From assembly GCF_044324785.1 (NCBI RefSeq), contig NZ_CP172127.1: a stretch of 64,000 nt of DNA. One strand, 5' to 3'. Of this stretch, positions 1,802 to 50,439 are shown piece by piece. Each line of letters begins with the position of its first letter. Position 1 is the first letter of the stretch. The notes under the pieces are model-generated. The model ran no database searches. It saw nothing but the letters and a program-made list of their open reading frames with translations, and had not been told where the DNA came from. The stretch is from Escherichia coli (GTDB lineage Bacteria; Pseudomonadota; Gammaproteobacteria; Enterobacterales; Enterobacteriaceae). A program made the translations under genes and the position numbers.

Positions 1802-1811
1802 AAAAATTCCT

Positions 1812-5133: not shown

Positions 5134-5147
5134 CATTATTTGATGGA

Positions 5148-7083: not shown

Positions 7084-7087
7084 TCTG

Positions 7088-8571: not shown

Positions 8572-8591
8572 TTCCCCTTCTCTGAAAATCA

Positions 8592-8623
8592 ACGGGCAGG
8601 TCACTGACTTGCCCGTTTTTTTA
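8592..8623 (+). terminator. rho-independent terminator of serA
   Basis: ACGGGCA...TGCCCGT stem followed by TTTTTTT. Confidence 0.75.
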
Positions 8624-8757
8624 TCGCTTCTCCACACCGTTGCCGCGTTGTGCATTCGGCTTTGCGAGTCTGCTCCAGAAAATAAATCAAAGTCAGATCA
8701 ATGCGTTGTGTTTATTTAATGGGGATTTACGATGGCAGGGCAGCATGGGGCTGTAAC

Positions 8758-8899
8758 GGTAAAGCCCTCACCGAAGCGAGGGCTTGAAGGAGAAGGGTTA
8801 TGATGCGACTTGTCATCATACTGATTGTACTGTTACTCATAAGTTTCCCAGCTTATTAACAGTCAGTCTCAGGGGAGGAGTCATCCTCCCTTACCCTTA
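8758..8899 (-). ncRNA. sibC: SibC antisense sRNA (antitoxin of ibsC); boundaries approximate
   Basis: Minus-strand TTGACA (8929-8934) - 17 nt - TAATTT (8906-8911) promoter; GCCCTC..GAGGGC hairpin plus UUU at 8764-8783; ~140 nt fully overlapping ibsC on opposite strand. Confidence 0.65.
8800..8859 (+). CDS. ibsC: type I toxin, 19-aa hydrophobic peptide IbsC (MMRLVIILIVLLLISFPAY)
   Basis: ATG ATG CGA CTT GTC ... TAT TAA read directly; GAAGGAGAAGG RBS 4-14 nt upstream; location in serA-ygfA intergenic region. Confidence 0.8.
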   Translation: MMRLVIILIVLLLISFPAY

Positions 8900-8959
8900 C
8901 TCACTAAATTAGGTTAAAGAATCAACGATGTCAATCAGGGCGATGCAGGTGTGTCGCCC

Positions 8960-9508
8960 TTACCACTCCCAGACTTTCGACGGTGTAACCACCGCAGGAA
9001 GTGGGATATCCCACTCTTCAACGGGGAGTTTTTCCACCAACTGACAATCATGCGCATAACCCACCGGTTGCATTTGATAGCGCTGCCAGTTTTGTAAGGT
9101 CCGATCATAAAAACCACCGCCCATTCCCAGGCGCTGACCGTACTCATCAAAGGCGACCAGCGGTGTGATCAACACGTCTAATCGGGAAAGGGGTAGCACG
9201 TCACGCACATCCAGTTTTGGCTCATGGATCTTCAACCTGTTCATCACCAGTTCGCTTTGCGGATGGTAATTCAGGAACAGCAAATTACCGGCACTAAAGG
9301 GATGCAAAACTGGAAGATATACGCGCTTACCGGCGCGCCAGAGTTGTTCTATGAGTGGCTGGGTGTCGAGTTCGCCATCAAAAGAGAGGAATACAGCGAC
9401 CGTATGCGCCATCACCACTGGGGGATACGTCATCATCCGGGTAGCGGCTTGTTGACCCATTTCCTGCTGTTGTTCCGGCGTTAACGCACGACGACGTTGC
9501 CGAATCAT
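8960..9508 (-). CDS. ygfA: 5-formyltetrahydrofolate cyclo-ligase family protein, 182 aa (alternative ATG at 9562 would give 200 aa)
   Basis: ORF 8960..9706 trimmed because its 5-prime 66 codons overlap the 6S RNA gene; MIRQRRRALTPEQQQEMGQQAATR N-terminus. Confidence 0.8.
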   Translation of the reverse strand: MIRQRRRALTPEQQQEMGQQAATRMMTYPPVVMAHTVAVFLSFDGELDTQPLIEQLWRAGKRVYLPVLHPFSAGNLLFLNYHPQSELVMNRLKIHEPKLDVRDVLPLSRLDVLITPLVAFDEYGQRLGMGGGFYDRTLQNWQRYQMQPVGYAHDCQLVEKLPVEEWDIPLPAVVTPSKVWEW

Positions 9509-9582
9509 TTTGCGGATTTCTTGTCGGGATAATGTCAGTGGGAGTTCTGGTAGTTGCGTCATGGCTGGTGCCAGATAAGAAG

Positions 9583-9766
9583 GGAATCTCCGAGATGCCG
9601 CCGCAGGCTGTAACCCTTGAACCCTTGGTTCAAGGTGAATGTGTCGTCGCAGTTTTAAGGCTTCTCGGACGGACCGAGCATGCTCACCAACCGCGGAGCG
9701 CCACATTCTTGTGGTATGAAATATCGGCTCAGGGGACTGGCCCGCTTGCGAACATCTCAGAGAAAT
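9583..9766 (-). ncRNA. ssrS: 6S RNA (RNA polymerase sigma70-holoenzyme regulator), ~184 nt
   Basis: Reverse complement reads ATTTCTCTGAGATGTTCGCAAGCGGGCCAGTCCCCTGAGCCGATATTTCATACCACAAGAATGTGGCGCTCCGCGGTTGGTGAGCATGCTCGGTCCGTCCGAGAAGCC..., matching the 6S RNA sequence as I recall it; immediately upstream of ygfA. Confidence 0.9.
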
Positions 9767-9807
9767 TTTGTCTTCACGGTTACTCTACCACAGTAAACCG
9801 AAAAGTG

Positions 9808-10203
<396 letters not shown>

Positions 10204-10304
10204 CTATAGCTACCCTGATGAGAAGAGACAAGCCCTTTTCTGGTCCACCAGGGCCCAAAGTGGTAGCATATCATGAATATTCCTCCCTTTGACGACGAAT
10301 GCTT

Positions 10305-10883
10305 ATGTCTATACAGAACGAAATGCCTGGTTACAACGAAATGAACCAGTATCTGAACCAACAAGGGACGGGTCTGACCCCTGCTGAGATGCATGGTTTA
10401 ATCAGCGGGATGATATGTGGCGGTAACGATGACAGCTCATGGCTGCCGCTACTTCACGACCTGACGAACGAAGGCATGGCTTTCGGTCATGAGCTGGCAC
10501 AGGCACTGCGTAAAATGCACTCTGCCACCAGCGATGCCCTGCAGGATGACGGCTTCCTTTTTCAGCTTTATCTGCCTGATGGCGATGATGTCAGCGTTTT
10601 CGATCGGGCTGATGCGCTGGCAGGTTGGGTCAATCACTTCCTGCTTGGTCTTGGCGTTACGCAACCGAAGCTGGACAAAGTGACCGGCGAAACCGGTGAA
10701 GCCATCGACGATCTGCGTAACATCGCGCAGCTGGGCTACGACGAAGACGAAGATCAGGAAGAGCTTGAAATGTCGCTTGAAGAGATCATCGAATACGTTC
10801 GTGTTGCCGCGCTGTTATGCCACGACACCTTTACTCATCCGCAACCGACCGCGCCAGAAGTACAAAAACCGACTCTACACTAA
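10305..10883 (+). CDS. ygfB: UPF0149 family protein YgfB, 192 aa
   Basis: ORF 10299..10883, start at second ATG ([17 protein letters not shown]). Confidence 0.85.
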
Positions 10884-10908
10884 AAACAAAAAACGTAAGG
10901 AGAGTGTT

Positions 10909-12234
10909 ATGAGTGAGATATCCCGGCAAGAGTTTCAGCGTCGCCGTCAGGCCCTGGTGGAGCAAATGCAACCCGGCAGCGCCGCGCTGATTTTTGCAGC
11001 ACCAGAAGTAACACGTAGCGCCGACAGCGAATACCCCTATCGTCAGAACAGTGACTTCTGGTACTTCACAGGCTTTAACGAACCGGAAGCGGTGCTGGTG
11101 CTGATTAAAAGCGACGACACTCATAACCACAGCGTTTTGTTTAACCGCGTTCGCGACCTGACGGCAGAGATCTGGTTTGGTCGTCGCTTAGGCCAGGATG
11201 CCGCGCCAGAGAAACTGGGCGTTGACCGCGCACTGGCATTCAGCGAAATTAATCAGCAACTTTATCAACTGCTTAATGGTCTGGATGTGGTTTACCACGC
11301 CCAGGGCGAATATGCGTATGCTGATGAAATCGTGAACAGTGCGCTGGAAAAACTGCGTAAAGGCTCGCGACAGAATCTCACCGCCCCGGCAACGATGATC
11401 GACTGGCGTCCCATGGTACATGAAATGCGCCTGTACAAATCACCAGAAGAGATTGCCGTACTTCGCCGCGCGGGGGAAATCACCGCCCTGGCGCATACCC
11501 GGGCGATGGAAAAATGCCGTCCGGGAATGTTCGAGTACCACCTGGAAGGCGAAATTCACCACGAATTTAACCGCCACGGCGCGCGCTATCCTTCCTATAA
11601 CACCATTGTCGGCAGCGGTGAAAACGGCTGCATTCTGCACTACACCGAAAACGAGTGTGAACTGCGTGACGGTGACCTGGTGTTGATTGACGCGGGTTGT
11701 GAATACAAAGGTTACGCTGGCGATATTACCCGCACCTTCCCGGTCAACGGCAAATTCACTCAGGCCCAGCGTGAAATCTACGACATTGTGCTGGAGTCTC
11801 TCGAAACCAGCCTGCGCCTGTATCGCCCGGGAACTTCCATTCAGGAAGTCACCGGTGAAGTGGTGCGTATCATGGTTAGCGGCCTGGTAAAACTCGGCAT
11901 CCTGAAAGGTGATGTTGATGAACTGATCGCTCAGAACGCCCATCGTCCTTTCTTTATGCATGGCCTTAGCCACTGGTTAGGACTGGATGTCCATGACGTT
12001 GGCGTTTATGGCCAGGATCGCTCGCGCATTTTGGAACCGGGCATGGTACTGACCGTAGAGCCAGGTCTGTATATCGCGCCGGATGCAGATGTGCCAGAAC
12101 AATATCGCGGTATCGGCATTCGTATTGAAGACGACATTGTGATTACCGAAACCGGCAACGAAAACCTCACCGCTAGCGTGGTGAAAAAGCCGGAAGAAAT
12201 CGAAGCGTTGATGGCAGCTGCGAGAAAGCAATGA
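10909..12234 (+). CDS. pepP: Xaa-Pro aminopeptidase (aminopeptidase P II), 441 aa
   Basis: ORF 10696..12234 trimmed to ATG at 10909 with AAGGAG RBS; MSEISRQEFQRRRQALVEQ; metal-binding HGLSHWLGLDVHD. Confidence 0.9.
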   Translation: MSEISRQEFQRRRQALVEQMQPGSAALIFAAPEVTRSADSEYPYRQNSDFWYFTGFNEPEAVLVLIKSDDTHNHSVLFNRVRDLTAEIWFGRRLGQDAAPEKLGVDRALAFSEINQQLYQLLNGLDVVYHAQGEYAYADEIVNSALEKLRKGSRQNLTAPATMIDWRPMVHEMRLYKSPEEIAVLRRAGEITALAHTRAMEKCRPGMFEYHLEGEIHHEFNRHGARYPSYNTIVGSGENGCILHYTENECELRDGDLVLIDAGCEYKGYAGDITRTFPVNGKFTQAQREIYDIVLESLETSLRLYRPGTSIQEVTGEVVRIMVSGLVKLGILKGDVDELIAQNAHRPFFMHGLSHWLGLDVHDVGVYGQDRSRILEPGMVLTVEPGLYIAPDADVPEQYRGIGIRIEDDIVITETGNENLTASVVKKPEEIEALMAAARKQ

Positions 12235-13409
12235 GCGTAATCATCGTCGGTGGCGGCATGGCGGGCGCGACGCTGGCGCTGGCTATTTCCCGGTTAAGTC
12301 ACGGGGCGCTGCCGGTACATTTGATTGAAGCGACTGCGCCAGAGTCACATGCTCATCCGGGCTTTGATGGACGAGCTATTGCGTTGGCGGCGGGCACTTG
12401 TCAGCAACTGGCGCGCATCGGCGTCTGGCAATCTCTGGCTGATTGCGCAACCGCCATCACTACCGTGCATGTCAGCGATCGTGGTCATGCCGGATTCGTC
12501 ACCCTCGCCGCAGAAGATTACCAACTGGCGGCGCTGGGGCAGGTTGTCGAATTGCACAATGTCGGGCAACGGCTGTTTGCATTGCTGCGCAAAGCACCTG
12601 GCGTAACGCTGCATTGTCCTGATCGCGTGGCTAACGTTGCCCGTACTCAGAGTCACGTTGAAGTGACGCTGGAGAGTGGCGAGACGCTGACGGGCTGCTT
12701 GCTGGTAGCCGCTGATGGCACCCATTCAGCGTTAGCCACTGTGTGCGGCGTTGACTGGCAGCAGGAGCCTTACGAACAACTGGCTGTGATTGCCAACGTT
12801 GCGACTTCCGTTGCGCACGAAGGGCGCGCTTTTGAACGCTTTACGCAACATGGCCCGCTGGCGATGTTGCCGATGTCTGACGGACGCTGTTCGCTGGTCT
12901 GGTGTCATCCACTGGAACGGCGCGAAGAGGTACTGTCTTGGAGCGACGAGAAGTTTTGCCGTGAACTCCAGTCGGCCTTTGGTTGGCGACTTGGGAAAAT
13001 TACCCACGCTGGTAAACGCAGTGCTTATCCGCTGGCGTTAACCCGCGCCGCCAGACCTATTACCCATCGTACCGTGCTGGTGGGCAATGCGGCGCAAACT
13101 CTGCACCCGATTGCCGGGCAAGGGTTCAACCTCGGTATGCGAGATGTCATGAGCCTTGCGGAAACCCTGACTCAGGCGCAGGAGCGCGGAGAAGACATGG
13201 GTGATTACGGCGTATTGTGCCGTTATCAGCAGCGTCGACAGAGCGATCGCGAAGCAACCATCGGTGTCACGGACAACCTTGTACATCTTTTTGCCAACCG
13301 TTGGACGCCGCTGGTTGTCGGGCGCAACATCGGGCTGATGGCAATGGAATTATTTACCCCGGCACGCGATGTGTTGGCGCAGCGCACCCTCGGTTGGGTC
13401 GCGCGTTGA
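12231..13409 (+). CDS. ubiH: 2-octaprenyl-6-methoxyphenol hydroxylase (FAD monooxygenase), 392 aa
   Basis: ATGA overlap with pepP stop; FAD fingerprint VIIVGGGMAGATLA. Confidence 0.9.
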   Translation: MSVIIVGGGMAGATLALAISRLSHGALPVHLIEATAPESHAHPGFDGRAIALAAGTCQQLARIGVWQSLADCATAITTVHVSDRGHAGFVTLAAEDYQLAALGQVVELHNVGQRLFALLRKAPGVTLHCPDRVANVARTQSHVEVTLESGETLTGCLLVAADGTHSALATVCGVDWQQEPYEQLAVIANVATSVAHEGRAFERFTQHGPLAMLPMSDGRCSLVWCHPLERREEVLSWSDEKFCRELQSAFGWRLGKITHAGKRSAYPLALTRAARPITHRTVLVGNAAQTLHPIAGQGFNLGMRDVMSLAETLTQAQERGEDMGDYGVLCRYQQRRQSDREATIGVTDNLVHLFANRWTPLVVGRNIGLMAMELFTPARDVLAQRTLGWVAR

Positions 13410-13431
13410 AGGCGGTTTTAAGGAATAAACA

Positions 13432-14634
13432 ATGCAAAGTGTTGATGTAGCCATTGTTGGCGGCGGCATGGTGGGGCTGGCGGTTGCCTGCGGCTTGCAG
13501 GGTAGTGGCTTACGCGTTGCCGTACTGGAGCAGCGCGTACCGGAACCTCTGGCGGCGGATGCACCACCACAACTGCGCGTTTCGGCTATCAATGCCGCCA
13601 GCGAAAAATTACTCACCCGTCTTGGCGTCTGGCAGGACATTCTCTCTCGTAGGGCCAGCTGTTATCACGGTATGGAAGTGTGGGACAAAGACAGCTTTGG
13701 TCACATTTCGTTTGACGATCAAAGCATGGGCTATAGCCATCTTGGGCATATCGTTGAAAATTCAGTGATTCACTACGCGCTGTGGAACAAAGCGCAGCAG
13801 TCGTCAGATATCACTCTGTTAGCCCCCGCAGAATTACAGCAGGTCGCCTGGGGAGAAAATGAAACCTTCCTGACGCTGAAAGATGGCAGCATGTTAACGG
13901 CGCGTCTGGTGATTGGCGCGGACGGCGCTAATTCCTGGTTGCGCAACAAAGCCGATATTCCGCTGACTTTCTGGGATTATCAGCATCACGCGCTGGTAGC
14001 GACCATTCGCACGGAAGAACCGCATGATGCGGTGGCGCGGCAGGTTTTCCATGGCGAAGGCATTCTGGCCTTTTTACCGCTTAGCGATCCGCATCTTTGC
14101 TCGATTGTCTGGTCACTGTCGCCAGAGGAAGCGCAGCGGATGCAGCAGGCAAGTGAAGACGAATTTAATCGCGCGTTAAATATCGCTTTTGATAATCGCC
14201 TGGGCTTATGCAAGGTTGAGAGCGAGCGTCAGGTGTTCCCGCTGACGGGGCGTTATGCCCGCCAGTTTGCCGCACACCGTCTGGCGTTGGTGGGCGACGC
14301 CGCGCATACTATTCACCCGCTCGCGGGGCAGGGCGTTAATCTCGGCTTTATGGATGCCGCAGAGCTGATTGCCGAACTGAAACGGTTGCATCGTCAGGGT
14401 AAAGACATCGGGCAGTACATTTACCTGCGTCGCTATGAGCGTAGCCGTAAGCACAGTGCGGCGCTGATGCTGGCTGGTATGCAGGGATTTCGCGATCTGT
14501 TTTCCGGTACCAATCCGGCGAAAAAACTGCTGCGTGATATTGGTCTGAAACTGGCCGACACGCTTCCTGGCGTTAAACCACAACTTATCCGCCAGGCAAT
14601 GGGATTAAACGATTTGCCTGAATGGCTGCGTTAA
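13432..14634 (+). CDS. ubiI: 2-octaprenylphenol hydroxylase (FAD monooxygenase), 400 aa
   Basis: FAD fingerprint VAIVGGGMVGLAVA; paralog of and adjacent to ubiH. Confidence 0.9.
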   Translation: MQSVDVAIVGGGMVGLAVACGLQGSGLRVAVLEQRVPEPLAADAPPQLRVSAINAASEKLLTRLGVWQDILSRRASCYHGMEVWDKDSFGHISFDDQSMGYSHLGHIVENSVIHYALWNKAQQSSDITLLAPAELQQVAWGENETFLTLKDGSMLTARLVIGADGANSWLRNKADIPLTFWDYQHHALVATIRTEEPHDAVARQVFHGEGILAFLPLSDPHLCSIVWSLSPEEAQRMQQASEDEFNRALNIAFDNRLGLCKVESERQVFPLTGRYARQFAAHRLALVGDAAHTIHPLAGQGVNLGFMDAAELIAELKRLHRQGKDIGQYIYLRRYERSRKHSAALMLAGMQGFRDLFSGTNPAKKLLRDIGLKLADTLPGVKPQLIRQAMGLNDLPEWLR

Positions 14635-14678
14635 AAATTTCTCCTCTGTTGTTTATTTGATACCCATCACACTTTCAT

Positions 14679-14706
14679 CTCCCGGTTTTTTCGCCGGGAG
14701 ATTTTC
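14679..14706 (+). terminator. rho-independent terminator after ubiI
   Basis: CTCCCGG...CCGGGAG stem followed by ATTTTCC. Confidence 0.55.
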
Positions 14707-14719
14707 CTCATTTGAAATA

Positions 14720-15081
14720 AACTAATTTCACCTCCGTTTTCGCATTATATTTTCTAATGTCACGAATTTTTGATTTAGTGTTTTTTGACATTTTTTCAGT
14801 TCTTAATATTGCTTTATTCAAATTAAGTTTCTCATCACATCATCTTTGTATAGAAACTGGAATGTTTTTTGGTTTTTTATTCTGTTGCTATTCTGGCGTT
14901 TTTTAACCATAAGCTAATGTGATGATCAATTTTACCTTATGGTTAACAGTCTGTTTCGGTGGTAAGTTCAGGCAAAAGAGAACGATTGCGTTGGGGACCG
15001 GGAGTGGCTCCGATGCTGGGTTTCGTGGTGATAATTTCGCCATGGAAAAGTTGTCAGCCCCGCTTATTCAATGAGGACAAG
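14720..15081 (+). promoter_or_regulatory. gcvTHP control region (AT-rich, CTAAT-containing)
   Basis: ~360-bp AT-rich leader upstream of gcvT with CTAAT motifs at 14722-14726 and 14754-14758; exact promoter not mapped. Confidence 0.45.
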
Positions 15082-16176
15082 ATGGCACAACAGACTCCTT
15101 TGTACGAACAACACACGCTTTGCGGCGCTCGCATGGTGGATTTCCACGGCTGGATGATGCCGCTGCATTACGGTTCGCAAATCGACGAACATCATGCGGT
15201 ACGTACCGATGCCGGAATGTTTGATGTGTCACATATGACCATCGTCGATCTTCGCGGCAGCCGCACCCGGGAGTTTTTGCGTTATCTGCTGGCGAACGAT
15301 GTGGCGAAGCTCACCAAAAGCGGCAAAGCCCTTTACTCGGGGATGTTGAATGCCTCTGGCGGTGTGATAGATGATCTCATCGTCTACTATTTTACTGAAG
15401 ATTTCTTCCGCCTCGTTGTTAACTCCGCCACCCGCGAAAAAGACCTCTCCTGGATCACCCAACACGCTGAACCTTTCGGCATCGAAATTACCGTTCGTGA
15501 TGACCTTTCCATGATTGCCGTGCAAGGGCCGAATGCGCAGGCAAAAGCTGCCACACTGTTTAATGACGCTCAGCGTCAGGCGGTGGAAGGGATGAAACCG
15601 TTCTTTGGCGTGCAGGCGGGCGATCTGTTTATTGCCACCACTGGTTATACCGGTGAAGCGGGCTATGAAATTGCGCTGCCCAATGAAAAAGCGGCCGATT
15701 TCTGGCGTGCGCTGGTGGAAGCGGGCGTTAAGCCATGCGGCCTGGGCGCGCGTGACACGCTGCGTCTGGAAGCGGGTATGAATCTTTATGGTCAGGAGAT
15801 GGACGAAACCATCTCTCCGTTAGCCGCCAACATGGGCTGGACTATCGCTTGGGAACCGGCAGATCGTGACTTTATCGGTCGTGAAGCCCTGGAAGTGCAG
15901 CGTGAGCATGGCACAGAAAAACTGGTTGGTCTGGTGATGACCGAAAAAGGCGTGCTGCGTAATGAACTGCCGGTACGCTTTACCGATGCGCAGGGCAACC
16001 AGCATGAAGGCATTATCACCAGCGGTACTTTCTCTCCGACGCTGGGTTACAGCATTGCGCTGGCGCGCGTGCCGGAAGGTATTGGTGAAACAGCGATTGT
16101 GCAAATTCGCAACCGTGAAATGCCGGTTAAAGTGACGAAACCTGTTTTTGTGCGTAACGGTAAAGCCGTCGCGTGA
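15082..16176 (+). CDS. gcvT: glycine cleavage system T protein (aminomethyltransferase), 364 aa
   Basis: ORF 14959..16176 trimmed to ATG at 15082 with [32 protein letters not shown]. Confidence 0.9.
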
Positions 16177-26620: not shown

Positions 26621-28354
26621 GTGAAACAACAGATACAACTTCGTCGCCGTGAAGTCGATGAAACGGCAGACTTGCCCGCGGAATTGCCTCCCTTGCTGCG
26701 CCGTTTATACGCCAGCCGGGGAGTACGCAGTGCGCAGGAACTGGAACGCAGTGTTAAAGGGATGCTGCCCTGGCAGCAACTGAGCGGCGTCGAAAAGGCC
26801 GTTGAGATCCTTTACAACGCCTTTCGCGAAGGAACGCGGATTATTGTGGTCGGTGATTTCGACGCCGACGGTGCCACCAGCACGGCTCTAAGCGTGCTGG
26901 CGATGCGCTCGCTTGGTTGCAGCAATATCGACTACCTGGTTCCAAACCGTTTCGAAGACGGTTACGGCTTAAGCCCGGAAGTGGTCGATCAGGCCCATGC
27001 CCGTGGCGCGCAGTTAATTGTCACGGTGGATAACGGTATTTCCTCCCATGCGGGGGTTGAACACGCTCGCTCGTTGGGCATCCCGGTTATTGTTACCGAT
27101 CACCATTTGCCGGGCGACACATTACCCGCAGCGGAAGCGATCATTAACCCTAACTTGCGCGACTGTAATTTCCCGTCGAAATCACTGGCAGGCGTGGGTG
27201 TGGCGTTTTATCTGATGCTGGCGCTGCGCACCTTTTTGCGCGATCAGGGCTGGTTTGATGAGCGCGGCATCGCAATTCCTAACCTGGCAGAACTGCTGGA
27301 TCTGGTCGCGCTGGGGACAGTGGCGGACGTCGTGCCGCTGGACGCCAATAACCGCATCCTCACCTGGCAGGGGATGAGTCGCATCCGTGCCGGTAAGTGC
27401 CGTCCGGGGATTAAAGCGCTGCTGGAAGTGGCAAATCGCGATGCGCAAAAACTCGCCGCCAGCGATTTAGGTTTTGCGCTGGGGCCACGTCTTAATGCCG
27501 CCGGACGACTGGATGATATGTCCGTTGGTGTGGCGCTGTTGCTGTGCGACAACATCGGCGAAGCGCGCGTGCTGGCAAATGAACTCGATGCGCTAAACCA
27601 GACGCGAAAAGAGATCGAACAAGGAATGCAGGTTGAAGCCCTGACCCTGTGCGAGAAACTGGAGCGCAGCCGTGACACGCTACCCGGTGGGCTGGCAATG
27701 TATCACCCCGAATGGCATCAGGGCGTGGTCGGCATTCTGGCTTCGCGCATTAAAGAGCGTTTTCACCGCCCGGTTATCGCTTTTGCGCCAGCGGGCGACG
27801 GTACGTTAAAAGGTTCTGGTCGCTCGATTCAGGGGCTACACATGCGCGATGCGCTGGAGCGGTTAGACACGCTCTACCCTGGCATGATGCTCAAGTTTGG
27901 CGGTCATGCGATGGCGGCTGGTTTGTCGCTGGAAGAGGATAAATTCGAACTCTTTCAACAACGGTTTGGCGAACTGGTTACTGAGTGGCTGGACCCTTCG
28001 CTATTGCAAGGCGAAGTGGTGTCAGACGGCCCGTTAAGCCCGGCCGAAATGACCATGGAAGTGGCGCAGCTGCTGCGCGATGCTGGCCCGTGGGGGCAGA
28101 TGTTCCCGGAGCCGCTGTTTGACGGTCATTTCCGTCTGCTGCAACAGCGGCTGGTGGGCGAGCGTCATTTGAAGGTGATGGTCGAACCGGTCGGCGGCGG
28201 TCCACTGCTGGATGGTATTGCTTTTAATGTCGATACCGCCCTCTGGCCGGATAACGGCGTGCGCGAAGTGCAACTGGCTTACAAGCTCGATATCAACGAG
28301 TTTCGCGGCAACCGCAGCCTGCAAATTATCATCGACAATATCTGGCCAATTTAG
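26621..28354 (+). CDS. recJ: single-strand DNA-specific 5-prime-3-prime exonuclease RecJ, 577 aa
   Basis: GTG start; DHH motifs (VVGDFDADGATS, TDHH). Confidence 0.9.
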   Translation: MKQQIQLRRREVDETADLPAELPPLLRRLYASRGVRSAQELERSVKGMLPWQQLSGVEKAVEILYNAFREGTRIIVVGDFDADGATSTALSVLAMRSLGCSNIDYLVPNRFEDGYGLSPEVVDQAHARGAQLIVTVDNGISSHAGVEHARSLGIPVIVTDHHLPGDTLPAAEAIINPNLRDCNFPSKSLAGVGVAFYLMLALRTFLRDQGWFDERGIAIPNLAELLDLVALGTVADVVPLDANNRILTWQGMSRIRAGKCRPGIKALLEVANRDAQKLAASDLGFALGPRLNAAGRLDDMSVGVALLLCDNIGEARVLANELDALNQTRKEIEQGMQVEALTLCEKLERSRDTLPGGLAMYHPEWHQGVVGILASRIKERFHRPVIAFAPAGDGTLKGSGRSIQGLHMRDALERLDTLYPGMMLKFGGHAMAAGLSLEEDKFELFQQRFGELVTEWLDPSLLQGEVVSDGPLSPAEMTMEVAQLLRDAGPWGQMFPEPLFDGHFRLLQQRLVGERHLKVMVEPVGGGPLLDGIAFNVDTALWPDNGVREVQLAYKLDINEFRGNRSLQIIIDNIWPI

Positions 28355-28444
28355 CGTCATCTTCTCTATAAAAAAGAGCGTGGATTGGGTACAATCCCGC
28401 TCTTATCACCGCATTTTGACTAGCTCAATAAAAGAAATCAGACC

Positions 28445-29543
28445 ATGTTTGAAATTAATCCGGTAAATAATCGCATTCAGGACCTCACGGAACGCTCCGA
28501 CGTTCTTAGGGGGTATCTTTGACTATGACGCCAAGAAAGAGCGTCTGGAAGAAGTAAACGCCGAGCTGGAACAGCCGGATGTCTGGAACGAACCCGAACG
28601 CGCACAGGCGCTGGGTAAAGAGCGTTCCTCCCTCGAAGCCGTTGTCGATACCCTCGACCAAATGAAACAGGGGCTGGAAGATGTTTCTGGTCTGCTGGAA
28701 CTGGCTGTAGAAGCTGACGACGAAGAAACCTTTAACGAAGCCGTTGCTGAACTCGACGCTCTGGAAGAAAAACTGGCGCAGCTTGAGTTCCGCCGTATGT
28801 TCTCTGGCGAATATGACAGCGCCGACTGCTACCTCGATATTCAGGCAGGCTCTGGCGGTACGGAAGCACAGGACTGGGCGAGCATGCTTGAGCGTATGTA
28901 TCTGCGCTGGGCAGAATCGCGTGGTTTCAAAACTGAAATCATCGAAGAGTCGGAAGGTGAAGTGGCGGGTATTAAATCCGTGACGATCAAAATCTCCGGC
29001 GATTACGCTTACGGCTGGCTGCGTACAGAAACTGGCGTTCACCGCCTGGTGCGTAAGAGCCCGTTTGACTCCGGCGGTCGTCGCCACACGTCGTTCAGCT
29101 CTGCGTTTGTTTACCCGGAAGTTGATGATGATATTGATATCGAAATCAACCCGGCGGATCTGCGCATTGACGTTTATCGCGCGTCCGGCGCGGGCGGTCA
29201 GCACGTTAACCGTACCGAATCTGCGGTGCGTATTACTCACATCCCAACTGGGATCGTGACCCAGTGCCAGAACGACCGTTCCCAGCACAAGAACAAAGAC
29301 CAGGCCATGAAGCAGATGAAAGCGAAGCTTTATGAACTGGAGATGCAGAAGAAAAATGCCGAGAAGCAGGCGATGGAAGATAACAAATCCGACATCGGCT
29401 GGGGCAGCCAGATTCGTTCTTATGTCCTTGATGACTCCCGCATTAAAGATCTGCGCACCGGGGTAGAAACCCGCAACACGCAGGCCGTGCTGGACGGCAG
29501 CCTGGATCAATTTATCGAAGCAAGTTTGAAAGCAGGGTTATGA
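28445..29543 (+). CDS. prfB: peptide chain release factor 2, 365 aa, made by programmed +1 frameshift at codon 25/26 (CTT TGA C at 28517-28523)
   Basis: Frame 0 ATG 28445 [25 protein letters not shown] then in-frame TGA; +1 frame continues [18 protein letters not shown]... to 29543; SPF and GGQ motifs present. Confidence 0.9.
28508..28523 (+). promoter_or_regulatory. prfB autoregulatory frameshift site: internal Shine-Dalgarno AGGGGG then CTT TGA C
   Basis: Read directly: agggggtatctttgac. Confidence 0.9.
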
Positions 29544-29552
29544 GGAACCAAC

Positions 29553-31070
29553 ATGTCTGAACAACACGCACAGGGCGCTGACGCGGTAGTCGATCTTAAC
29601 AATGAACTGAAAACGCGTCGTGAGAAGCTGGCGAACCTGCGCGAGCAGGGGATTGCCTTCCCGAACGATTTCCGTCGCGATCATACCTCTGACCAATTGC
29701 ACGCAGAATTCGACGGTAAAGAGAACGAAGAACTGGAAGCGCTGAACATCGAAGTTGCCGTTGCTGGCCGCATGATGACCCGTCGTATTATGGGTAAAGC
29801 GTCTTTCGTTACCCTGCAGGATGTGGGTGGCCGCATTCAGCTGTACGTTGCCCGTGACGATCTGCCGGAAGGCGTTTACAACGAGCAGTTCAAAAAATGG
29901 GACCTCGGCGATATCCTCGGCGCGAAAGGTAAACTGTTCAAAACCAAAACTGGCGAACTGTCTATCCACTGCACCGAGCTGCGTCTGCTGACCAAAGCAC
30001 TGCGTCCGCTGCCGGATAAATTCCACGGCTTGCAGGATCAGGAAGCGCGCTATCGTCAGCGTTATCTGGATCTCATCTCTAACGATGAATCCCGCAACAC
30101 CTTTAAAGTGCGCTCGCAGATCCTCTCTGGTATTCGCCAGTTCATGGTGAACCGCGGCTTTATGGAAGTTGAAACGCCGATGATGCAGGTGATCCCTGGC
30201 GGTGCCGCTGCGCGTCCGTTCATCACCCACCATAATGCGCTGGATCTCGACATGTACCTGCGTATCGCGCCGGAACTGTACCTCAAGCGTCTGGTGGTCG
30301 GTGGCTTCGAGCGTGTATTCGAAATCAACCGTAACTTCCGTAACGAAGGTATTTCCGTACGTCATAACCCAGAGTTCACCATGATGGAACTCTATATGGC
30401 TTACGCAGATTACAAAGATCTGATCGAGCTGACCGAATCGCTGTTCCGTACTCTGGCACAGGATATTCTCGGTAAGACGGAAGTGACCTACGGCGACGTA
30501 ACGCTGGACTTCGGTAAGCCGTTCGAAAAACTGACCATGCGTGAAGCGATCAAGAAATATCGCCCGGAAACCGACATGGCGGATCTGGACAACTTCGACT
30601 CTGCGAAAGCGATTGCTGAATCTATCGGTATCCACGTTGAGAAGAGCTGGGGTCTGGGCCGTATCGTTACCGAGATCTTCGAAGAAGTGGCAGAAGCACA
30701 TCTGATTCAGCCGACCTTCATTACTGAATATCCGGCAGAAGTTTCTCCGCTGGCGCGTCGTAACGACGTTAACCCGGAAATCACTGACCGCTTTGAGTTC
30801 TTTATCGGTGGTCGTGAAATCGGTAACGGCTTTAGCGAGCTGAATGACGCGGAAGATCAGGCGCAGCGCTTCCTGGATCAGGTTGCCGCGAAAGACGCAG
30901 GTGACGACGAAGCGATGTTCTACGATGAAGATTATGTCACCGCACTGGAACACGGCTTACCGCCGACAGCAGGTCTGGGAATTGGTATCGACCGTATGGT
31001 AATGCTGTTCACCAACAGCCATACCATCCGCGACGTTATTCTGTTCCCGGCGATGCGTCCGGTGAAATAA
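29553..31070 (+). CDS. lysS: lysyl-tRNA synthetase (constitutive), 505 aa
   Basis: Full [36 protein letters not shown]; class II aaRS. Confidence 0.95.
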
Positions 31071-31090
31071 GCATTACGTTATGCTCACAA

Positions 31091-31116
31091 CCCCGGCAAA
31101 TGTCGGGGTTTTTTAT
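31091..31116. terminator. bidirectional terminator between convergent lysS and idi
   Basis: CCCCGGCAAATGTCGGGG hairpin followed by TTTTTTATTT. Confidence 0.75.
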
Positions 31117-37640: not shown

Positions 37641-38960
37641 TTAGTTGCGTTCGTACACCAGACGACCATCAACGTAGGTGCGGTAGATCGAACGGTCATC
37701 GCCCAACGTCATCATCACGAACAATTTGTCGACTAAAGAAACAGAGTTGTCATAGCGCAGCTGCTGTAGCGGAGTGGCGGTGGGTTCCATCACCACGAAA
37801 TCAGCCTCTTTGCCAGGTAAAAAGTTGCCAATCAAATCGTCAAGGCCCAGAGATTTCGCTCCGCCGAGCGTGGCCAGGTAAAATGCTTCATATGCCGAGA
37901 GGCGATAGCCTTGTAGTTGCAACACTTTGTAGGCTTCGTTTAGCGTTTGCAGCATGTTGAAAGTTGTTCCGGCACCGATATCCGTTCCCATGCCCACTTT
38001 GACTTTCTTCTGCCATGCTTTTTTCAAGTTGAATAAGCCGCTGCCGAGGTAAAGGTTGGAGGTCGGACAGAAAGCAATGCTGGATTTGGTTTCGCTGAGA
38101 CGATCCCACTCTTTTTCTTCGAGATGGACGCAGTGAGCAAAGACACAGTTTTTACCTGTCAGGCCATACTGGTGATAAACATCCAGATAGCCATCATGTT
38201 CAGGATAAAGTTCTTTCACCCAGGCAATTTCATCTTTGTTTTCACAGAGATGGGTATGTACCCACGTATCCGGATATTCTTCTTTCAGGCGTTGCGCCAT
38301 CGCCATCTGTTCAGGTGACGATGTTGGGGCGAAGCGTGGTGTAATGGCATATAACAGACGGCCATTTTTATGCCAGCGTTCGATCAGTTCTTTGCTTTGG
38401 TGATAGCTACTTTCCGCCGTGTCGAGCAGATAATCTGGCGCATTACGGTCCATCATCACTTTACCGGCAATCATTCGCATATTGATATGACTGGCGGCTT
38501 CAAACAACGCATCCACAGATTGTGGATGAACCGTACCAAACACCAGTGCCGTAGTCGTACCGTTACGTAAAAGCTGCTTGATGAAGAACGCCGACATTTC
38601 GCGGGCGTACTCTAAATCCTCATAACGACGTTCAGTAGGGAAGGTGTGTTTATTCAACCACTCCAGCAATTGCTCACCATAGGCTCCCACCATTTCACTT
38701 TGCGGATAATGGATATGTGTATCGACAAAGCCCGGTACTATCAGTTTGCCGCGATAGTCGCGCACGCGAATGGTGTCAGGAATTTGATGCTTTCCGTTTT
38801 CCCATTCGCCAAACCATTCCACTTTTCCCTGTTTAATAAGTAATAAACCATCCTCAATAAACCGCAGCGCAGAGGCAATCTCTTCCGGGTTATCGACCGT
38901 ACGGGTGACATCAATAAAACTGCCTCGTACCGCTTTTAACGTGTGTTCTCCTGACATCAT
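37641..38960 (-). CDS. guaD: guanine deaminase (amidohydrolase superfamily), 439 aa
   Basis: ORF 37641..39080 trimmed to MMSGEHTLKAVRGSF; metal-binding VDTHIHYPQ. Confidence 0.9.
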   Translation of the reverse strand: MMSGEHTLKAVRGSFIDVTRTVDNPEEIASALRFIEDGLLLIKQGKVEWFGEWENGKHQIPDTIRVRDYRGKLIVPGFVDTHIHYPQSEMVGAYGEQLLEWLNKHTFPTERRYEDLEYAREMSAFFIKQLLRNGTTTALVFGTVHPQSVDALFEAASHINMRMIAGKVMMDRNAPDYLLDTAESSYHQSKELIERWHKNGRLLYAITPRFAPTSSPEQMAMAQRLKEEYPDTWVHTHLCENKDEIAWVKELYPEHDGYLDVYHQYGLTGKNCVFAHCVHLEEKEWDRLSETKSSIAFCPTSNLYLGSGLFNLKKAWQKKVKVGMGTDIGAGTTFNMLQTLNEAYKVLQLQGYRLSAYEAFYLATLGGAKSLGLDDLIGNFLPGKEADFVVMEPTATPLQQLRYDNSVSLVDKLFVMMTLGDDRSIYRTYVDGRLVYERN

Positions 38961-38974
38961 TGACTCCTTTACTG

Positions 38975-40375
38975 TTAATCCATCTCTTCCGCTGAGGTAA
39001 TACCAGGCAGAACGTTTTCCTGTCGGTAGCCACCAGGGAGGATAATATTTAATAAAATCGCAGTTAACCCGCCAGCACAAATAGGGTTTTCAACTAGTAC
39101 ATAAATAGAGGCTGGCAATATTTTAAAAATTTCGGGATCGTAGGAGACGCCAAGCCCTAAACCTAAAGAAGTGGCGACAATAAGTGTTTCTCGGCGCTTT
39201 AAACCGTTGGTGATGATGATGCGAATCCCTGCGATGGCAATCATGGAAAACATCAACGTCATTGCGCCTCCCAGAACTGCCGAGGGAATGGTCGTGAAGA
39301 AGCCGCCAATCATCGGAAACAAACCGAGGATAACCAGCATTACCGCGATGGTTCGCCCGACATAACGTGAAGCGACGCCAGTCATCTGAATAACCCCATT
39401 ATTTTGCGCAAACGTGGTTAAGGGTAATGAACCGACAGCGGAGGCGATAACAGAAACCAGACCATCTGCCAGCACGCCGCCTTTCAGTCGGGACTGATAC
39501 TCTTCCCCCTGAATGGGGCGGCGAGAAACCATTGCCGTGGCGGTGATATCGCCGACAGCTTCCAGCACGCTAAGCAAATAAATCGTGCCAACCACCAGGA
39601 ACTGATGGAAGCTGAAACTAAACCCGTATTTGAACGGATGCGGGATGGTGATTAACGGCAAATTGCGCATACTGCTGAAATCCACCATACCCAGGCATAA
39701 CGACGCGATATAACCGACGCATAGCCCAATGGCGATCCCTCCCATGCGTAGCAACGGACTGCGACAGCAGTTAAAGCCGATCACCACAATCAAAACCAAT
39801 AAACCAACGCCGAGATGTTCGTAATTGCCGAACGTACCGCTGCTTTTGGCTGCAAATCCTCCACCAAAATCGATAATGCCGACTTTAATCAGGCTTAAGC
39901 CGATCATCAGTACCACAATACCGCTGACAGTAGGCGTAATAACCCGACGTAAATAGGGCAGGATAAAAGAAGAGCCGACAACCAGAAATGCGCCAACGAA
40001 GGAGACGCCGAAGAGCGACGACATGATTAACTCTTCGTGAAAACCGTCGCTTTTCATGCTGCTGCCCAGCGCAATCATGACCGTAACAAATGAAAAATTG
40101 ACTGACTGAATTGAGAGAAGACCAGAACCGACGATGCCGTAGCGGTTTACTTGTAACCAGGTACCAATACCAGAGGCGATCATCGCCATAGAAACCAGAT
40201 AAGCGGTTGTTTCAGCGGAAAGCTGTAAGGCCGCACCCACGATTAACGCGGGGGTTACCATCGGAACGAAAATTGCCAACAGATGGGTAATGGCACCAAC
40301 GAGAGCCTGATGAAAGGGAGGGCGATCCTCCAGTTCAAATATAAGGTCAGAACCTGCATGGTTTATATCAGACAT
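38975..40375 (-). CDS. xanQ: NCS2-family xanthine permease, 466 aa
   Basis: ORF 38975..40588 trimmed to ATG at 40373-40375 with AGGAG RBS (MSDINHAGSDLIFELEDRPPFHQAL). Confidence 0.9.
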   Translation of the reverse strand: MSDINHAGSDLIFELEDRPPFHQALVGAITHLLAIFVPMVTPALIVGAALQLSAETTAYLVSMAMIASGIGTWLQVNRYGIVGSGLLSIQSVNFSFVTVMIALGSSMKSDGFHEELIMSSLFGVSFVGAFLVVGSSFILPYLRRVITPTVSGIVVLMIGLSLIKVGIIDFGGGFAAKSSGTFGNYEHLGVGLLVLIVVIGFNCCRSPLLRMGGIAIGLCVGYIASLCLGMVDFSSMRNLPLITIPHPFKYGFSFSFHQFLVVGTIYLLSVLEAVGDITATAMVSRRPIQGEEYQSRLKGGVLADGLVSVIASAVGSLPLTTFAQNNGVIQMTGVASRYVGRTIAVMLVILGLFPMIGGFFTTIPSAVLGGAMTLMFSMIAIAGIRIIITNGLKRRETLIVATSLGLGLGVSYDPEIFKILPASIYVLVENPICAGGLTAILLNIILPGGYRQENVLPGITSAEEMD

Positions 40376-45567: not shown

Positions 45568-48500
45568 TTACACCTCCACGCGGCCCAGCAGATAATGATG
45601 ATGCTGGTGGACATGGCTAATGATGCGGCACATATCGTTCAGCTCCGGTGGTACGTTGTTGAACTGACCTTCGCTGTCGATGTTTAACACCCAGCTTTGG
45701 TTATTCAGACGTACTCGTACCCGGCAATCTTCCACAAGGAAGCCTGGGTTGCTGCTGTTATCAAAGTCTTGCGACAGGCTGAAGACGGTGATTTTGTCTT
45801 TGTACGGTTTACCGTTCCACGGACAGAACTGAGCGCAGTTGCCGCATTCGTTACAGTAAGCGTCGAGGTGCAGCGTCTGGAAACGGTTCTGGAAGCCAGG
45901 GACCGCAATGGAGACGTTGGCGCGGTTCGGGCAGACATCCACACACTTGCTGCAAACGTAGTTACATTCAAGGCAGCGAGCAGCTTCCTGCGCGACAAAC
46001 GCATCACGATCGTCACTGTTCACCAGCGTGATAGAGATATCGCCTTTACGTTGATAGATTTCCGCCGGATTGACGTTGTTCCAGTATTTATCGTTCTGGT
46101 GGGAACGGATATTTTCCCGACTAAGGATGGCATCGGTCGCCCGACGCGCGGTTCCGACAGCAGCGACAATGGAGGATGGTCCGCGCTGTACGTCGCCGAT
46201 CATAAAGACGTCAGTCAGACGAGTTTCGCCATTATGGTCGACGTCTGGCCAGCCGTTTTTGTCCAGCGGCACGCCCATCGCATTCAGGGCTTCAGTATCC
46301 TGCTGTTCACCAATGGCGGTGATCAGGCTGTCTACATGCAGTGTTACTGTTTCGTTGGTTTCAACCGGACGGCGACGACCTTTCTCATCAGGTTCGCCAA
46401 GCGACATAACGCGCAAGGTTAAGGTGCCATCAGCATCGAAACGTTCCGGATTATTCAGGAAACGGAACTCCACGCCGTCGTGCAACGCTTCTTCATACTC
46501 TTCGCGCCATGCTGGCATCTCTTGCAGTGAACGACGGTAAACGACCGTTGCTTTTTCTACGCCTGGAACGCGTAACGCCGCACGAGCGCAGTCCATTGCC
46601 GTGTTACCCGCCCCGACAACGACCACATGTTTGCCCAGCTTGAGCGCTGTGCCCTTGTTGTATTCACGCAGGAAGGGGAGTGATTTCCAGACATTTTGGT
46701 TGTCGCCCGCCAGTTTCACACCGCTATTTTTATCAGTGCCGGTGGCAATCAGAACATAGTGGAAGCCCTGATTTTTTAACTGTTCAACGGTCAAATCGGG
46801 TGAGCAGCCATACTCAAATTTCACGCCGTGAGCGGCAACAAAATCGATATCGTGCTGAATTAACTCTGCAGGAATACGGAACTGAGGAATGATATTTTTC
46901 ACCACGCCGCCCGCATTGGCTTCGCGTTCAAACAGCGTAACCGGATGGCCCGCTCTGGCAAGGAAGTAACCTGCTGCCAGACCCGCCGGACCTGCACCAA
47001 TCACGGCAACCGGATGGCGTGAACCAGAACCGGCTGGTTTGTGCCAGCGTTGCTTATATTCATCCCAACCTTTTTCCAGCGCGACTTTTTTCAGTTCGCG
47101 GATATTCAGCGCACTGTCGTAATCCAGGCGGGTACAGTTGTATTGGCACTGGTGATCGCAAATATGACCGGTAATGGCGGGCAGGGCGTTGCGTTGGTAG
47201 ATGAGTTCCAGTGCGTCGGCATAGCGGTGTTCGCCAAGCAGACGGATGTATTCCGGAATATCCTGTTTAATGGCGCAAGCAGTAACGCACGGTGCAACGT
47301 AGCAGTCGGTCAGCGGCAGGTCTTCTGCCACTTCAATACGCTCTTCTGGCTTCCAGTGTTTCTGAGTGTATTCCATGGTTAACGCGTCTGCTGCCAGTTT
47401 GTTCAGTCGTTCGACGTCAACATGGTCAAGCCCCCAGGCGTCGGAGCCTTCCAGCTCGCGCATGCAGGCACTTAAGCGCAGATAGCCGCCAGGTTTCAGC
47501 AGGTCGGTTGCCATCGTGATAGGGCGAATACCAGTATCAAAAATATCGCGGATAGTCAGCTGACTGGCACCACCGGAATAAGAAATGGGCAGTTTGCCGT
47601 CAAAGGCGCGAGAGAGAACTGCTGCAACATTGATGGAGAGCGGGAACAGCGCACGGCCTGACATATACATCTCTTCACCAGGCAGTGCGCCTTTATTGTT
47701 GATGGTGCCGAGAGTGTTAGTCAGTTTTACGCCAAAGCCGAGTGATTTTTCTTTTGCCAGTGCCATCAGACGTTCCAGCATTTCCAGTGCTTGCGTCAGC
47801 TTGAGGTCGTGATCAAATGACTCTTCTTTTAAGCCTATGTAACCGAAACCGCAGACATCGAGGATCTCACGAACACGCGCGTACCCCAGTAAGGTCGGGT
47901 TGAGTTTCACAAAGGTATTGAGCCCTTTTTCTTCCAGCATGTAGCGGCAAATGGCTTCGATTTCATGCGGAGGACAGCCGTGCATGGTGGAGAGGGTGAC
48001 GCCCTGCACCATGCTGGTGGGGATGCGAGCGGGTAAGGCTTGCAAGCTTTCGCGTTTTTCCTGCAATCCGTGGCGGGCTAAAAATGCGTCATCCTGGAGT
48101 AATTTATTCAGCGTATCGCGATATTGAGCGAATTTCGGATGGTCAGATGCGTCCATCATATTGTCGATGAACTGTTGCATCGGCGGTTGCTTAATACCTT
48201 CGAGGTTGTAACCGACGCTCATATTAAAGATGAACGATTTACCGGAATCAGAAGGCTGGAACATCGCTTCGAGAAGGTGCAGGGCAAACCAGGCTTTGAG
48301 GTATTCATCCCAGGCTTTAAGCAGGGTAAATTCGGTGGACCATTCGGTGTTAAAGCACTCGTCTTCGGCATCAATACAGGGCTTTTCCAGCTCCAGGCGG
48401 TCAAGAATTTGGACGGTTTTTAGTTCGATGAAGCGTCCGCCAGTCAGCCAGGAAGTGACAATATTTTGCGCGAGCTGCGTGTGCGGGCCAGCGGCAGGGC

Positions 48501-48666
48501 CGACGGGAGTGGCACAGGTTTCACCGAAGACGCTAACAGTTTTACCTTTTACGGGTGAGTAAAACTGTTGCTCGGGAATACCAAAGATTGAGCGTTGTTG
48601 TTGGTATTCATCAAATATGCGCGTCAAAAGTTCCTCAAACGGAATGGGACGCATAATATCCCCCAT
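45568..48666 (-). CDS. ygfK: large Fe-S flavoprotein oxidoreductase (GltD/dihydropyrimidine-dehydrogenase-like with 4Fe-4S clusters), 1032 aa
   Basis: Dinucleotide fingerprints [28 protein letters not shown] and VVVVGAGNTAMDCARAAL; ferredoxin motifs CLECNYVCSKCVDVCP and CNECGNCAQFCP; AGGAG RBS. Confidence 0.85.
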   Translation of the reverse strand: MGDIMRPIPFEELLTRIFDEYQQQRSIFGIPEQQFYSPVKGKTVSVFGETCATPVGPAAGPHTQLAQNIVTSWLTGGRFIELKTVQILDRLELEKPCIDAEDECFNTEWSTEFTLLKAWDEYLKAWFALHLLEAMFQPSDSGKSFIFNMSVGYNLEGIKQPPMQQFIDNMMDASDHPKFAQYRDTLNKLLQDDAFLARHGLQEKRESLQALPARIPTSMVQGVTLSTMHGCPPHEIEAICRYMLEEKGLNTFVKLNPTLLGYARVREILDVCGFGYIGLKEESFDHDLKLTQALEMLERLMALAKEKSLGFGVKLTNTLGTINNKGALPGEEMYMSGRALFPLSINVAAVLSRAFDGKLPISYSGGASQLTIRDIFDTGIRPITMATDLLKPGGYLRLSACMRELEGSDAWGLDHVDVERLNKLAADALTMEYTQKHWKPEERIEVAEDLPLTDCYVAPCVTACAIKQDIPEYIRLLGEHRYADALELIYQRNALPAITGHICDHQCQYNCTRLDYDSALNIRELKKVALEKGWDEYKQRWHKPAGSGSRHPVAVIGAGPAGLAAGYFLARAGHPVTLFEREANAGGVVKNIIPQFRIPAELIQHDIDFVAAHGVKFEYGCSPDLTVEQLKNQGFHYVLIATGTDKNSGVKLAGDNQNVWKSLPFLREYNKGTALKLGKHVVVVGAGNTAMDCARAALRVPGVEKATVVYRRSLQEMPAWREEYEEALHDGVEFRFLNNPERFDADGTLTLRVMSLGEPDEKGRRRPVETNETVTLHVDSLITAIGEQQDTEALNAMGVPLDKNGWPDVDHNGETRLTDVFMIGDVQRGPSSIVAAVGTARRATDAILSRENIRSHQNDKYWNNVNPAEIYQRKGDISITLVNSDDRDAFVAQEAARCLECNYVCSKCVDVCPNRANVSIAVPGFQNRFQTLHLDAYCNECGNCAQFCPWNGKPYKDKITVFSLSQDFDNSSNPGFLVEDCRVRVRLNNQSWVLNIDSEGQFNNVPPELNDMCRIISHVHQHHHYLLGRVEV

Positions 48667-48748
48667 AACCCTCTCCTTAGCTTATACAGATATCATTGAG
48701 TGACCGGTGTTGAGAAATCCGGTGGTTTAGGGGGATAGAGCAACAATC

Positions 48749-48764
48749 GCACCACTCTTGCCAG
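48749..48764 (-). promoter_or_regulatory. candidate sigma54 promoter upstream of ygfK (CTGGCAAG-N4-GTGC)
   Basis: Minus-strand CTGGCAAGAGTGGTGCG read by eye; GG/GC spacing correct; ~85 nt upstream of ygfK ATG. Confidence 0.35.
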
Positions 48765-48817
48765 GTTTGGCGGGAAATATAAAAAAATGTGAGGCGGCTC
48801 GAAACTTAGGAGCTTTT

Positions 48818-48833
48818 TGTGAATGAACTCACA
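48818..48833. promoter_or_regulatory. perfect CRP core site TGTGA-N6-TCACA
   Basis: tttTGTGAatgaacTCACAgg read directly in ygfK upstream region. Confidence 0.5.
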
Positions 48834-48987
48834 GGTGCCAAATGAGAATTAAAATCACTCCTGAAAATTATTATTGCCAGCCCATTTATCACTTTTTCTC
48901 TTTTCTCAAAATCAGTGATTCCTTATCATTATGATAAAGAGAACTGGAAGGGTTAAATATTTGAACGCAATCGTTTAACTACGTTTT

Positions 48988-49566
48988 CTAAATTTCAGTA
49001 TACCTTTTTTTCGCTGTAATAAAGTCGTCCGGAGTATCAATATCTAAAATTATTTCTGCATTTTCTATTTCGACGGAATAATGTTCTCCCATAAGGAGTG
49101 CCTGACGCATATTGGTGATATTGGGACGCTGGATTGCCTGCATCAGGCATGGCTTTGACACTAAAATCGGATGGCCGGGAATGCCATTATGGAGTGGCAG
49201 TATTGCGCCATCATTTCGTAACGACCAGATTTTCCTAAAAATATCGATGGTGAGGGTAGGCATGTCACCGTGGGTGAGAAAACAATATTCTGTTTGTACC
49301 GCGGGTACTGCGGCCTTTACTGATGTTAGTAAACCCTGTGCATAATCTGGGTTATGGATAATAGTGATATTGCTCTGGTTCGCATAACGCTTGTGCAGTT
49401 CATTACCACGATAGCCGGTGACTAAAATAATTCGGCTACAAAACTGCAACGCATTTTTGATACTTGTATCAAGAATTGTTCCCTGTTGCCAGGGTAACAT
49501 CATTTTCCATTGCCCCATTCTTGATGATAATCCGGCAGCGGTAATTATACAGTCGATGGCTGACAT
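48988..49566 (-). CDS. mocA: molybdenum cofactor cytidylyltransferase (MobA-like nucleotidyltransferase), 192 aa
   Basis: N-terminal ITAAGLSSRMG nucleotidyltransferase motif; full ORF. Confidence 0.85.
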   Translation of the reverse strand: MSAIDCIITAAGLSSRMGQWKMMLPWQQGTILDTSIKNALQFCSRIILVTGYRGNELHKRYANQSNITIIHNPDYAQGLLTSVKAAVPAVQTEYCFLTHGDMPTLTIDIFRKIWSLRNDGAILPLHNGIPGHPILVSKPCLMQAIQRPNITNMRQALLMGEHYSVEIENAEIILDIDTPDDFITAKKRYTEI

Positions 49567-49668
49567 AGTGGTTCCATTATTTATAGGGGCTAATAACGCC
49601 TGATAATTGCGTTACTTCCTGATGGATTAAGTTGGGGATAATTTATCCCAGAGAGGTCATAAAGACTC

Positions 49669-50439
49669 GTGAAAAGTATAGTTGACCCATCGGCATTATT
49701 CATTGATTTAGGCGCGCAGAAACGTCCCACTGTGATTTCTGTTGTTGGGGCTGGGGGGAAAACCAGCTTGCTTTTTTGGCTGGCAGAACTGATCCAGGCT
49801 AGCGGCAGGCGTGTGTTAATCACTACGACGACACATATGTTTATGCCAACGTCTCACTGGCCCGTGGTTTTCTGTCGTGATCCCGCCATGCTTCCTCATG
49901 CGTCTCTTACATCCCCCATTTCATTTTGTTTTCACAGCTGGAAAGCGAACCAGGGAAAAGTGCAGGGATTTATGCCAGAAGCGATTGATGCACTGGTGCA
50001 ACGACCAGAGTGTGACGTAATTCTCATTGAGGCAGATGGCTCGCGTGGAATGCCGTTAAAAGCGCCTGATGAGCACGAACCTTGCATACCCAAAAGCAGT
50101 TGCTGCGTGATTGCTGTGATGGGAGGACATATTTTGGGCGCGAAAGTGAGCACAGAAAATGTCCATCGCTGGTCGCAGTTTGCTGATATTACCGGGTTAA
50201 CACCTGATGCAACCTTGCAACTGAGCGATCTCGTTGCGCTGGTTCGCCACCCTCAGGGCGCATTTAAAAACGTACCGCAAGGTTGTCGGCGAGTCTGGTT
50301 CATTAACCGTTTTTCTCAATGTGAGAATGCGATTGCGCAAAGCGAGCTCCTTCAACCGCTGCAACAACACGACGTAGAGGCAATCTGGCTGGGCGATATA
50401 CAAGAACATCCTGCAATCGCGCGCAGATTTGTGAATTAG
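49669..50439 (+). CDS. yqeC: P-loop protein YqeC (selenium-dependent molybdenum hydroxylase accessory family), 256 aa
   Basis: GTG start; Walker-A-like VVGAGGKTSLL. Confidence 0.8.
   Translation: MKSIVDPSALFIDLGAQKRPTVISVVGAGGKTSLLFWLAELIQASGRRVLITTTTHMFMPTSHWPVVFCRDPAMLPHASLTSPISFCFHSWKANQGKVQGFMPEAIDALVQRPECDVILIEADGSRGMPLKAPDEHEPCIPKSSCCVIAVMGGHILGAKVSTENVHRWSQFADITGLTPDATLQLSDLVALVRHPQGAFKNVPQGCRRVWFINRFSQCENAIAQSELLQPLQQHDVEAIWLGDIQEHPAIARRFVN

Follow-up and report, generated by a model that had tools for sequence, protein, structure and literature searches.

The locus at positions 28445-29543 of the E. coli DNA analysed here (one stretch of 64,000 nucleotides, hereafter the window) raises the question of how a prfB gene, whose opening frame ends after 25 codons, encodes a complete release factor 2 (RF2). 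We consider it nearly certain from the sequence that this chromosomal prfB, which is of E. coli type but not that of K-12, encodes RF2 via the canonical programmed +1 ribosomal frameshift, and the analysis found nothing that speaks against this reading. The frameshift is real and intact, and it is a textbook feature that has already been known for decades.

Direct reading and translation of 28300-29700 placed the start codon of prfB at ATG 28445-28447. The frame opened by this codon (frame 0) extends over 28445-28522, where 25 sense codons, the last of them CTT at 28517-28519, are followed by a premature TGA as codon 26 (28520-28522). The same ORF of 25 aa appears in the mechanical ORF list. 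The initial annotation had described 25 sense codons and then CTT TGA C; the count of 25 holds, but CTT is itself the 25th codon and does not follow 25 others. In the +1 frame, the sequence can be read from GAC at 28521 to TGA at 29541-29543, corresponding to 1023 nt or 340 codons plus the stop codon. The RF2 coding sequence is split between the two frames by the in-frame stop near codon 26 as follows:

28445 to 28519, plus strand: frame-0 segment of prfB, codons 1-25 (by translation; residues 1-25 are identical in PDB 1GQE and K-12 RF2)
28521 to 29543, plus strand: +1 segment of prfB, codons 26-365 (from GAC, Asp26, to Leu365) and the terminal TGA (by translation, with SPF at residues 205-207 and GGQ at residues 250-252)

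Joining the two frames at codon 25/26, as the initial annotation had proposed, indeed recovered a protein of 25 + 340 = 365 aa. This product is 100% identical to RefSeq WP_001701073.1, the product of the joined prfB CDS assigned by PGAP in strains 2012C-4502, N3 and O157:H7 F3113. The solved structure of E. coli RF2 (PDB 1GQE) could be aligned to the joined product over residues 1-365 with an E-value of 8e-241, the sole difference being Leu in our sequence versus Val in 1GQE at ...KLYE[L/V]EMQ.... The NCBIfam model for peptide chain release factor 2 (TIGR00020) scored 525.9 bits against a curated cut-off of 370, and its alignment runs unbroken over residues 12-362, spanning the codon 25/26 junction. 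The RF1 models reached 305.7 and 303.8 bits on the same product, which is below their own cut-offs as well as below the score of the RF2 model. The Pfam domains PCRF (207.5 bits) and RF-1 (146 bits) cover residues 31-219 and 228-337, respectively. The joined product also carries two release-factor tripeptides, of which SPF is responsible for stop-codon recognition. GGQ is the catalytic motif of the release factor (PMC5373646).

The sequence around the junction, 28508-28523, reads AGGGGG-TAT-CTT-TGA-C and contains every element of the published frameshift motif at the correct spacing:

28508 to 28513, plus strand: internal Shine-Dalgarno-like element AGGGGG (by reading; matches the consensus AGGGGG in PMC12421855)
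28514 to 28516, plus strand: 3-nt spacer TAT, encoding Tyr24 (spacing as in the published motif)
28517 to 28520, plus strand: slippery CTTT, on which the Leu tRNA re-pairs from CUU to UUU according to the literature (by reading)
28520 to 28523, plus strand: premature in-frame TGA followed by C at 28523, a weak and RF2-specific stop context according to the literature (by reading)

The purine-rich Shine-Dalgarno-like element lies 3 nt 5' of CTT and 6 nt 5' of the stop codon, CTT T directly precedes and overlaps the stop, and the C after the stop provides the weak termination context. The premature stop is the RF2-readable TGA that the published definition requires, never the RF1-specific TAG (PMC12421855). 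The start at ATG 28445, the CTT TGA C and the AGGGGG 3 nt upstream had all been named in the initial annotation, which called the site intact; direct reading bore this out to the base. In a simple duplex calculation with the generally known sequence of the 16S rRNA 3' tail (no rRNA gene lies within the 64-kb window), AGGGGG falls within the 10-nt segment of the strongest predicted pairing in the prfB mRNA, at -11.7 kcal/mol, followed by a next-best segment at 28952 with -11.4 kcal/mol. No structured RNA was detected at prfB by an Rfam scan of the whole 64-kb window at the gathering thresholds.

A chance occurrence of the motif was considered and ruled out: a search for AGGGGGNNNCTTTGAC allowing at most one mismatch found a single match in the 64 kb, both strands taken together, as opposed to the 0.04 expected from shuffled sequences. 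Moreover, the motif occupies codons 22-26 of an RF2 homologue, and because of this placement it is not a chance match.

How such a motif operates has been established for E. coli prfB, in which the in-frame TGA is at codon 26 and the Shine-Dalgarno-like sequence six nt upstream of the stop, while CTT before the stop creates the slippery CTTT and C after it makes the stop weak (PMC12421855). Abundant RF2 terminates translation at this stop; under a shortage of RF2, the ribosome pauses and its anti-Shine-Dalgarno sequence pairs with the Shine-Dalgarno-like element, the tRNA in the E site is displaced, and the Leu tRNA in the P site slips by +1 so that GAC is read, by which RF2 autoregulates its own production (PMC12421855). 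In the present allele, ribosomes initiating at ATG 28445 would read 25 codons until CUU (Leu25) occupies the P site and the weak UGA-C the A site. The codon order suggests that TAT (Tyr24) would then be the E-site codon. Plentiful RF2 would lead to termination at UGA and release of a 25-residue peptide, whereas a shortage of RF2 would let the ribosome pause and AGGGGG, 3 nt upstream, pair with the anti-Shine-Dalgarno tail of the 16S rRNA. The Leu tRNA would slip from CUU to UUU, and the ribosome would decode GAC (Asp26) in the +1 frame and carry on to 29543 to produce the 365-aa RF2, which would in this way limit its own synthesis. Frameshifting in this strain is made probable by the near-identity of its prfB to alleles that have been studied experimentally. 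That the shift occurs on the ribosome, as well as its efficiency and the autoregulation, would carry over from the literature on E. coli alleles with the identical motif (PMC12421855; PMC5373646). From ribosome profiling, native-locus frameshifting was estimated at about 28% in K-12 and about 21% with RF2 bearing Ala246, as in E. coli B (Baggett, Zhang and Gross, PLoS Genet 2017, PMC5373646).

Rather than by slippage of the ribosome, the frame could be restored at the RNA level, with the T run as the place of editing or of slippage during transcription, or UGA could be read through. The sequence offers no support for such a correction, albeit the level at which a frame is corrected is indistinguishable by sequence alone. 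Transcriptional slippage is known to require long homopolymer runs, whereas the T run in CTTT has only three bases. Readthrough of UGA in frame 0 would encounter a second TGA two codons further on in this allele (28526-28528), and its product would not be RF2. Published in vitro and in vivo work on E. coli places the event on the ribosome (PMC12421855; profiling in PMC5373646). We therefore regard an RNA-level correction or readthrough as very improbable compared with the programmed ribosomal frameshift.

To a naive ORF caller, the single-base break of the frame could also resemble an indel introduced by sequencing or assembly; alternatively, it could reflect an inactivating mutation that turned prfB into a pseudogene. 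We compared the locus with 5426 complete E. coli genomes, a collection that excludes Shigella. By megablast, the 1401-nt region 28300-29700 is present as one copy in 5425 of the 5426 genomes with a best identity of 99.6%, and the matches always lie under the features recJ, prfB and lysS. The 61-nt frameshift region (28485-28545) was matched in 5422 of the 5426 genomes, being 100% identical in 997 of these 5422 and falling into the 95-99% identity band in the other 4425; the matches sampled from this band had 98.4% identity, corresponding to one mismatch. The same break and motif in 5422 of 5426 independently sequenced genomes argue against an error or a pseudogene, as does the annotation of reference genomes with a programmed frameshift. 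A random indel would not yield AGGGGG, the 3-nt spacer, CTTT and TGA-C together, and both frames jointly encode native RF2, the structure of which has been solved. The chance that the break is an indel or an inactivating mutation instead of a programmed frameshift is, in our view, vanishingly small.

One of the 5426 genomes lacked a match to the recJ-prfB-lysS region, and four lacked the 61-nt region at megablast sensitivity. In one assembly, the replicon carrying the recJ-prfB-lysS region bears a plasmid label. These genomes are possibly assembly or labelling oddities.

In the annotation of strain 2012C-4502 by PGAP, prfB is a two-piece joined CDS noted as 'programmed frameshift', whose locus positions 3146-4244 correspond exactly to 28445-29543 of the window, in agreement with the comparison to annotated prfB suggested in the initial annotation. 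The joined prfB with the note 'programmed frameshift' was also assigned by PGAP in strain N3 and the O157:H7 strain, and b2891 of K-12 MG1655 is annotated as a joined CDS. The mechanical ORF list, by contrast, contains for the +1 frame only 28662-29543, an ORF of 293 aa starting from ATG 28662, which is Met73 of RF2. As the initial annotation had noted, only the post-shift segment from an internal Met is visible there. From plain ORF calling, this locus would emerge as an ORF of 25 aa plus an RF2 truncated to 293 aa, and recoding-aware annotation such as PGAP is needed. The mis-call expected of automated annotation accordingly applies to a plain ORF caller but not to PGAP, which emits the joined CDS. 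The frameshift matters here only as a check of annotation and does not make any open question testable; as the textbook case of autoregulatory +1 frameshifting, it should be present in practically all E. coli genomes.

Taken at face value, the ORF list would imply two separate products without any frameshift, namely a 25-aa peptide and a truncated RF2 initiated at Met73. We discount this reading as practically excluded, since residues 26-72 are encoded upstream in the +1 frame, where translation of the region revealed no ATG, GTG or TTG between the upstream stop TAA 28464 and 28662 (28467-28661), and these residues match RF2 perfectly and belong to the RF2 chains of solved structures (aligned over 1-365), with the RF2 model aligning from residue 12 over the junction and Pfam PCRF from residue 31. 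A conserved coding sequence without a start codon means that the ribosome must enter it from frame 0, in line with the programmed frameshift.

The frameshift motif was first described from the E. coli prfB sequence itself. In a bacteria-wide survey, it was found in 64% of 12,753 genomes with the hyper-conserved consensus AGGGGG, 3-nt spacing, CTTT, TGA and C, and the present allele shares all these elements without any difference (Prince, Lin and Feaga, mBio 2025, PMC12421855). The E. coli prfB systems behind WP_001701073.1 and K-12 b2891 share with our sequence the start codon, the 25-codon first frame, the motif, the +1 frame, the length of 365 aa and recJ and lysS as neighbours, and the coordinates coincide exactly with those of the annotated joined CDS. 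Compared with K-12, 15 of the 1099 nt of prfB are different, and the protein differs from K-12 RF2 (b2891/NP_417367.1) in one amino acid, residue 246, which is Ala in our sequence (GCG, 29180-29182) and Thr in K-12. Thr246 is specific to K-12 and confers lower activity, while strains other than K-12 usually carry the more active Ala246 (PMC5373646). Judging from this residue, the window does not come from a K-12 strain, and the RF2 encoded by it is the usual, more active form.

Within the frameshift region, a single difference distinguishes our sequence from both K-12 and the O157:H7 strain compared: position 28526 is T instead of C. This position is the third base of Tyr27 (TAT versus TAC), synonymous in the +1 frame and outside the motif. 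In frame 0, T28526 creates a second TGA-C two codons past the programmed stop (CTT TGA CTA TGA C; 28526-28529), whereas with C at this position frame 0 would stay open for about 33 more codons. There is a slim chance that this tandem frame-0 stop might slightly alter either what happens to ribosomes reading through UGA or the mRNA context around it, and that, together with RF2 bearing Ala246, it might thereby shift the autoregulatory set-point of RF2. The analysis gave no evidence that T28526 affects function, and it has no known significance.

The gene order xerD-dsbC-recJ-prfB-lysS-idi-yqfH-yqfG-uacT is that of the E. coli core chromosome. Downstream of prfB, two features are of relevance for its transcript:

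29553 to 31070, plus strand: lysS, lysine--tRNA ligase, starting 9 nt past the prfB stop (ORF list and reference annotation)
31089 to 31110, plus strand: terminator-like hairpin with a T run 3' of lysS (consensus match only)

The stop codon TGA of prfB overlaps the Shine-Dalgarno sequence GAGGA of lysS, and a terminator scan found no terminator between the two genes. The 9-nt gap and the lack of an intervening terminator suggest that prfB and lysS form one operon, or transcription unit, and the hairpin at 31089-31110 is likely to be the end of this transcript. A simple scan for sigma-70 consensus promoters gave none in the recJ-prfB gap and did not locate the prfB promoter; its one hit lies inside a coding sequence and is fewer than shuffled sequences give, which makes it not meaningful. 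The 90-nt gap between recJ and prfB, with a predicted fold of -22.1 kcal/mol as a whole, contains a strong inverted repeat (AAGAGCG-T-GGATTG ... CAATCC-CGCTCTT) at 28374-28404, directly past the recJ stop. The flanking T/A runs make this repeat terminator-like mainly on the minus strand, and it may serve to terminate recJ or work as a bidirectional terminator.

Elsewhere, the window contains no tRNA genes. Rfam identified 6S RNA (ssrS; score 139.8 bits) at 9583-9766 and, with 136.5 bits, a Sib antitoxin RNA at 8784-8934, both on the minus strand, the latter opposite the ibsC toxin gene. Both RNAs lie where E. coli has them, between serA and fau/zapA, an ordinary arrangement.

Collinearity with E. 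coli genomes extends over the whole 64-kb window. Among the 5426 complete genomes, the best match reaches only 99.5% identity for 1-16000, 98.6% for 16001-41000 and 99.2% for 41001-64000, and the best-matching strain changes between these parts. Compared with strain N3, the differences vary from 0 to 49 per kb with peaks at 27001-28000 (recJ) and 38001-39000. By its distribution along the sequence, this divergence forms a mosaic pattern typical of recombination. The DNA may stem from an E. coli lineage that is sparsely represented among the sequenced genomes, or from a Shigella, which the collection does not include. Local GC content drops to 0.45 at 48001-50000, near mocA/yqeC, and to 0.43 at 58001-60000, within a segment whose matches list ygeV and xdhA, versus about 0.52 elsewhere.
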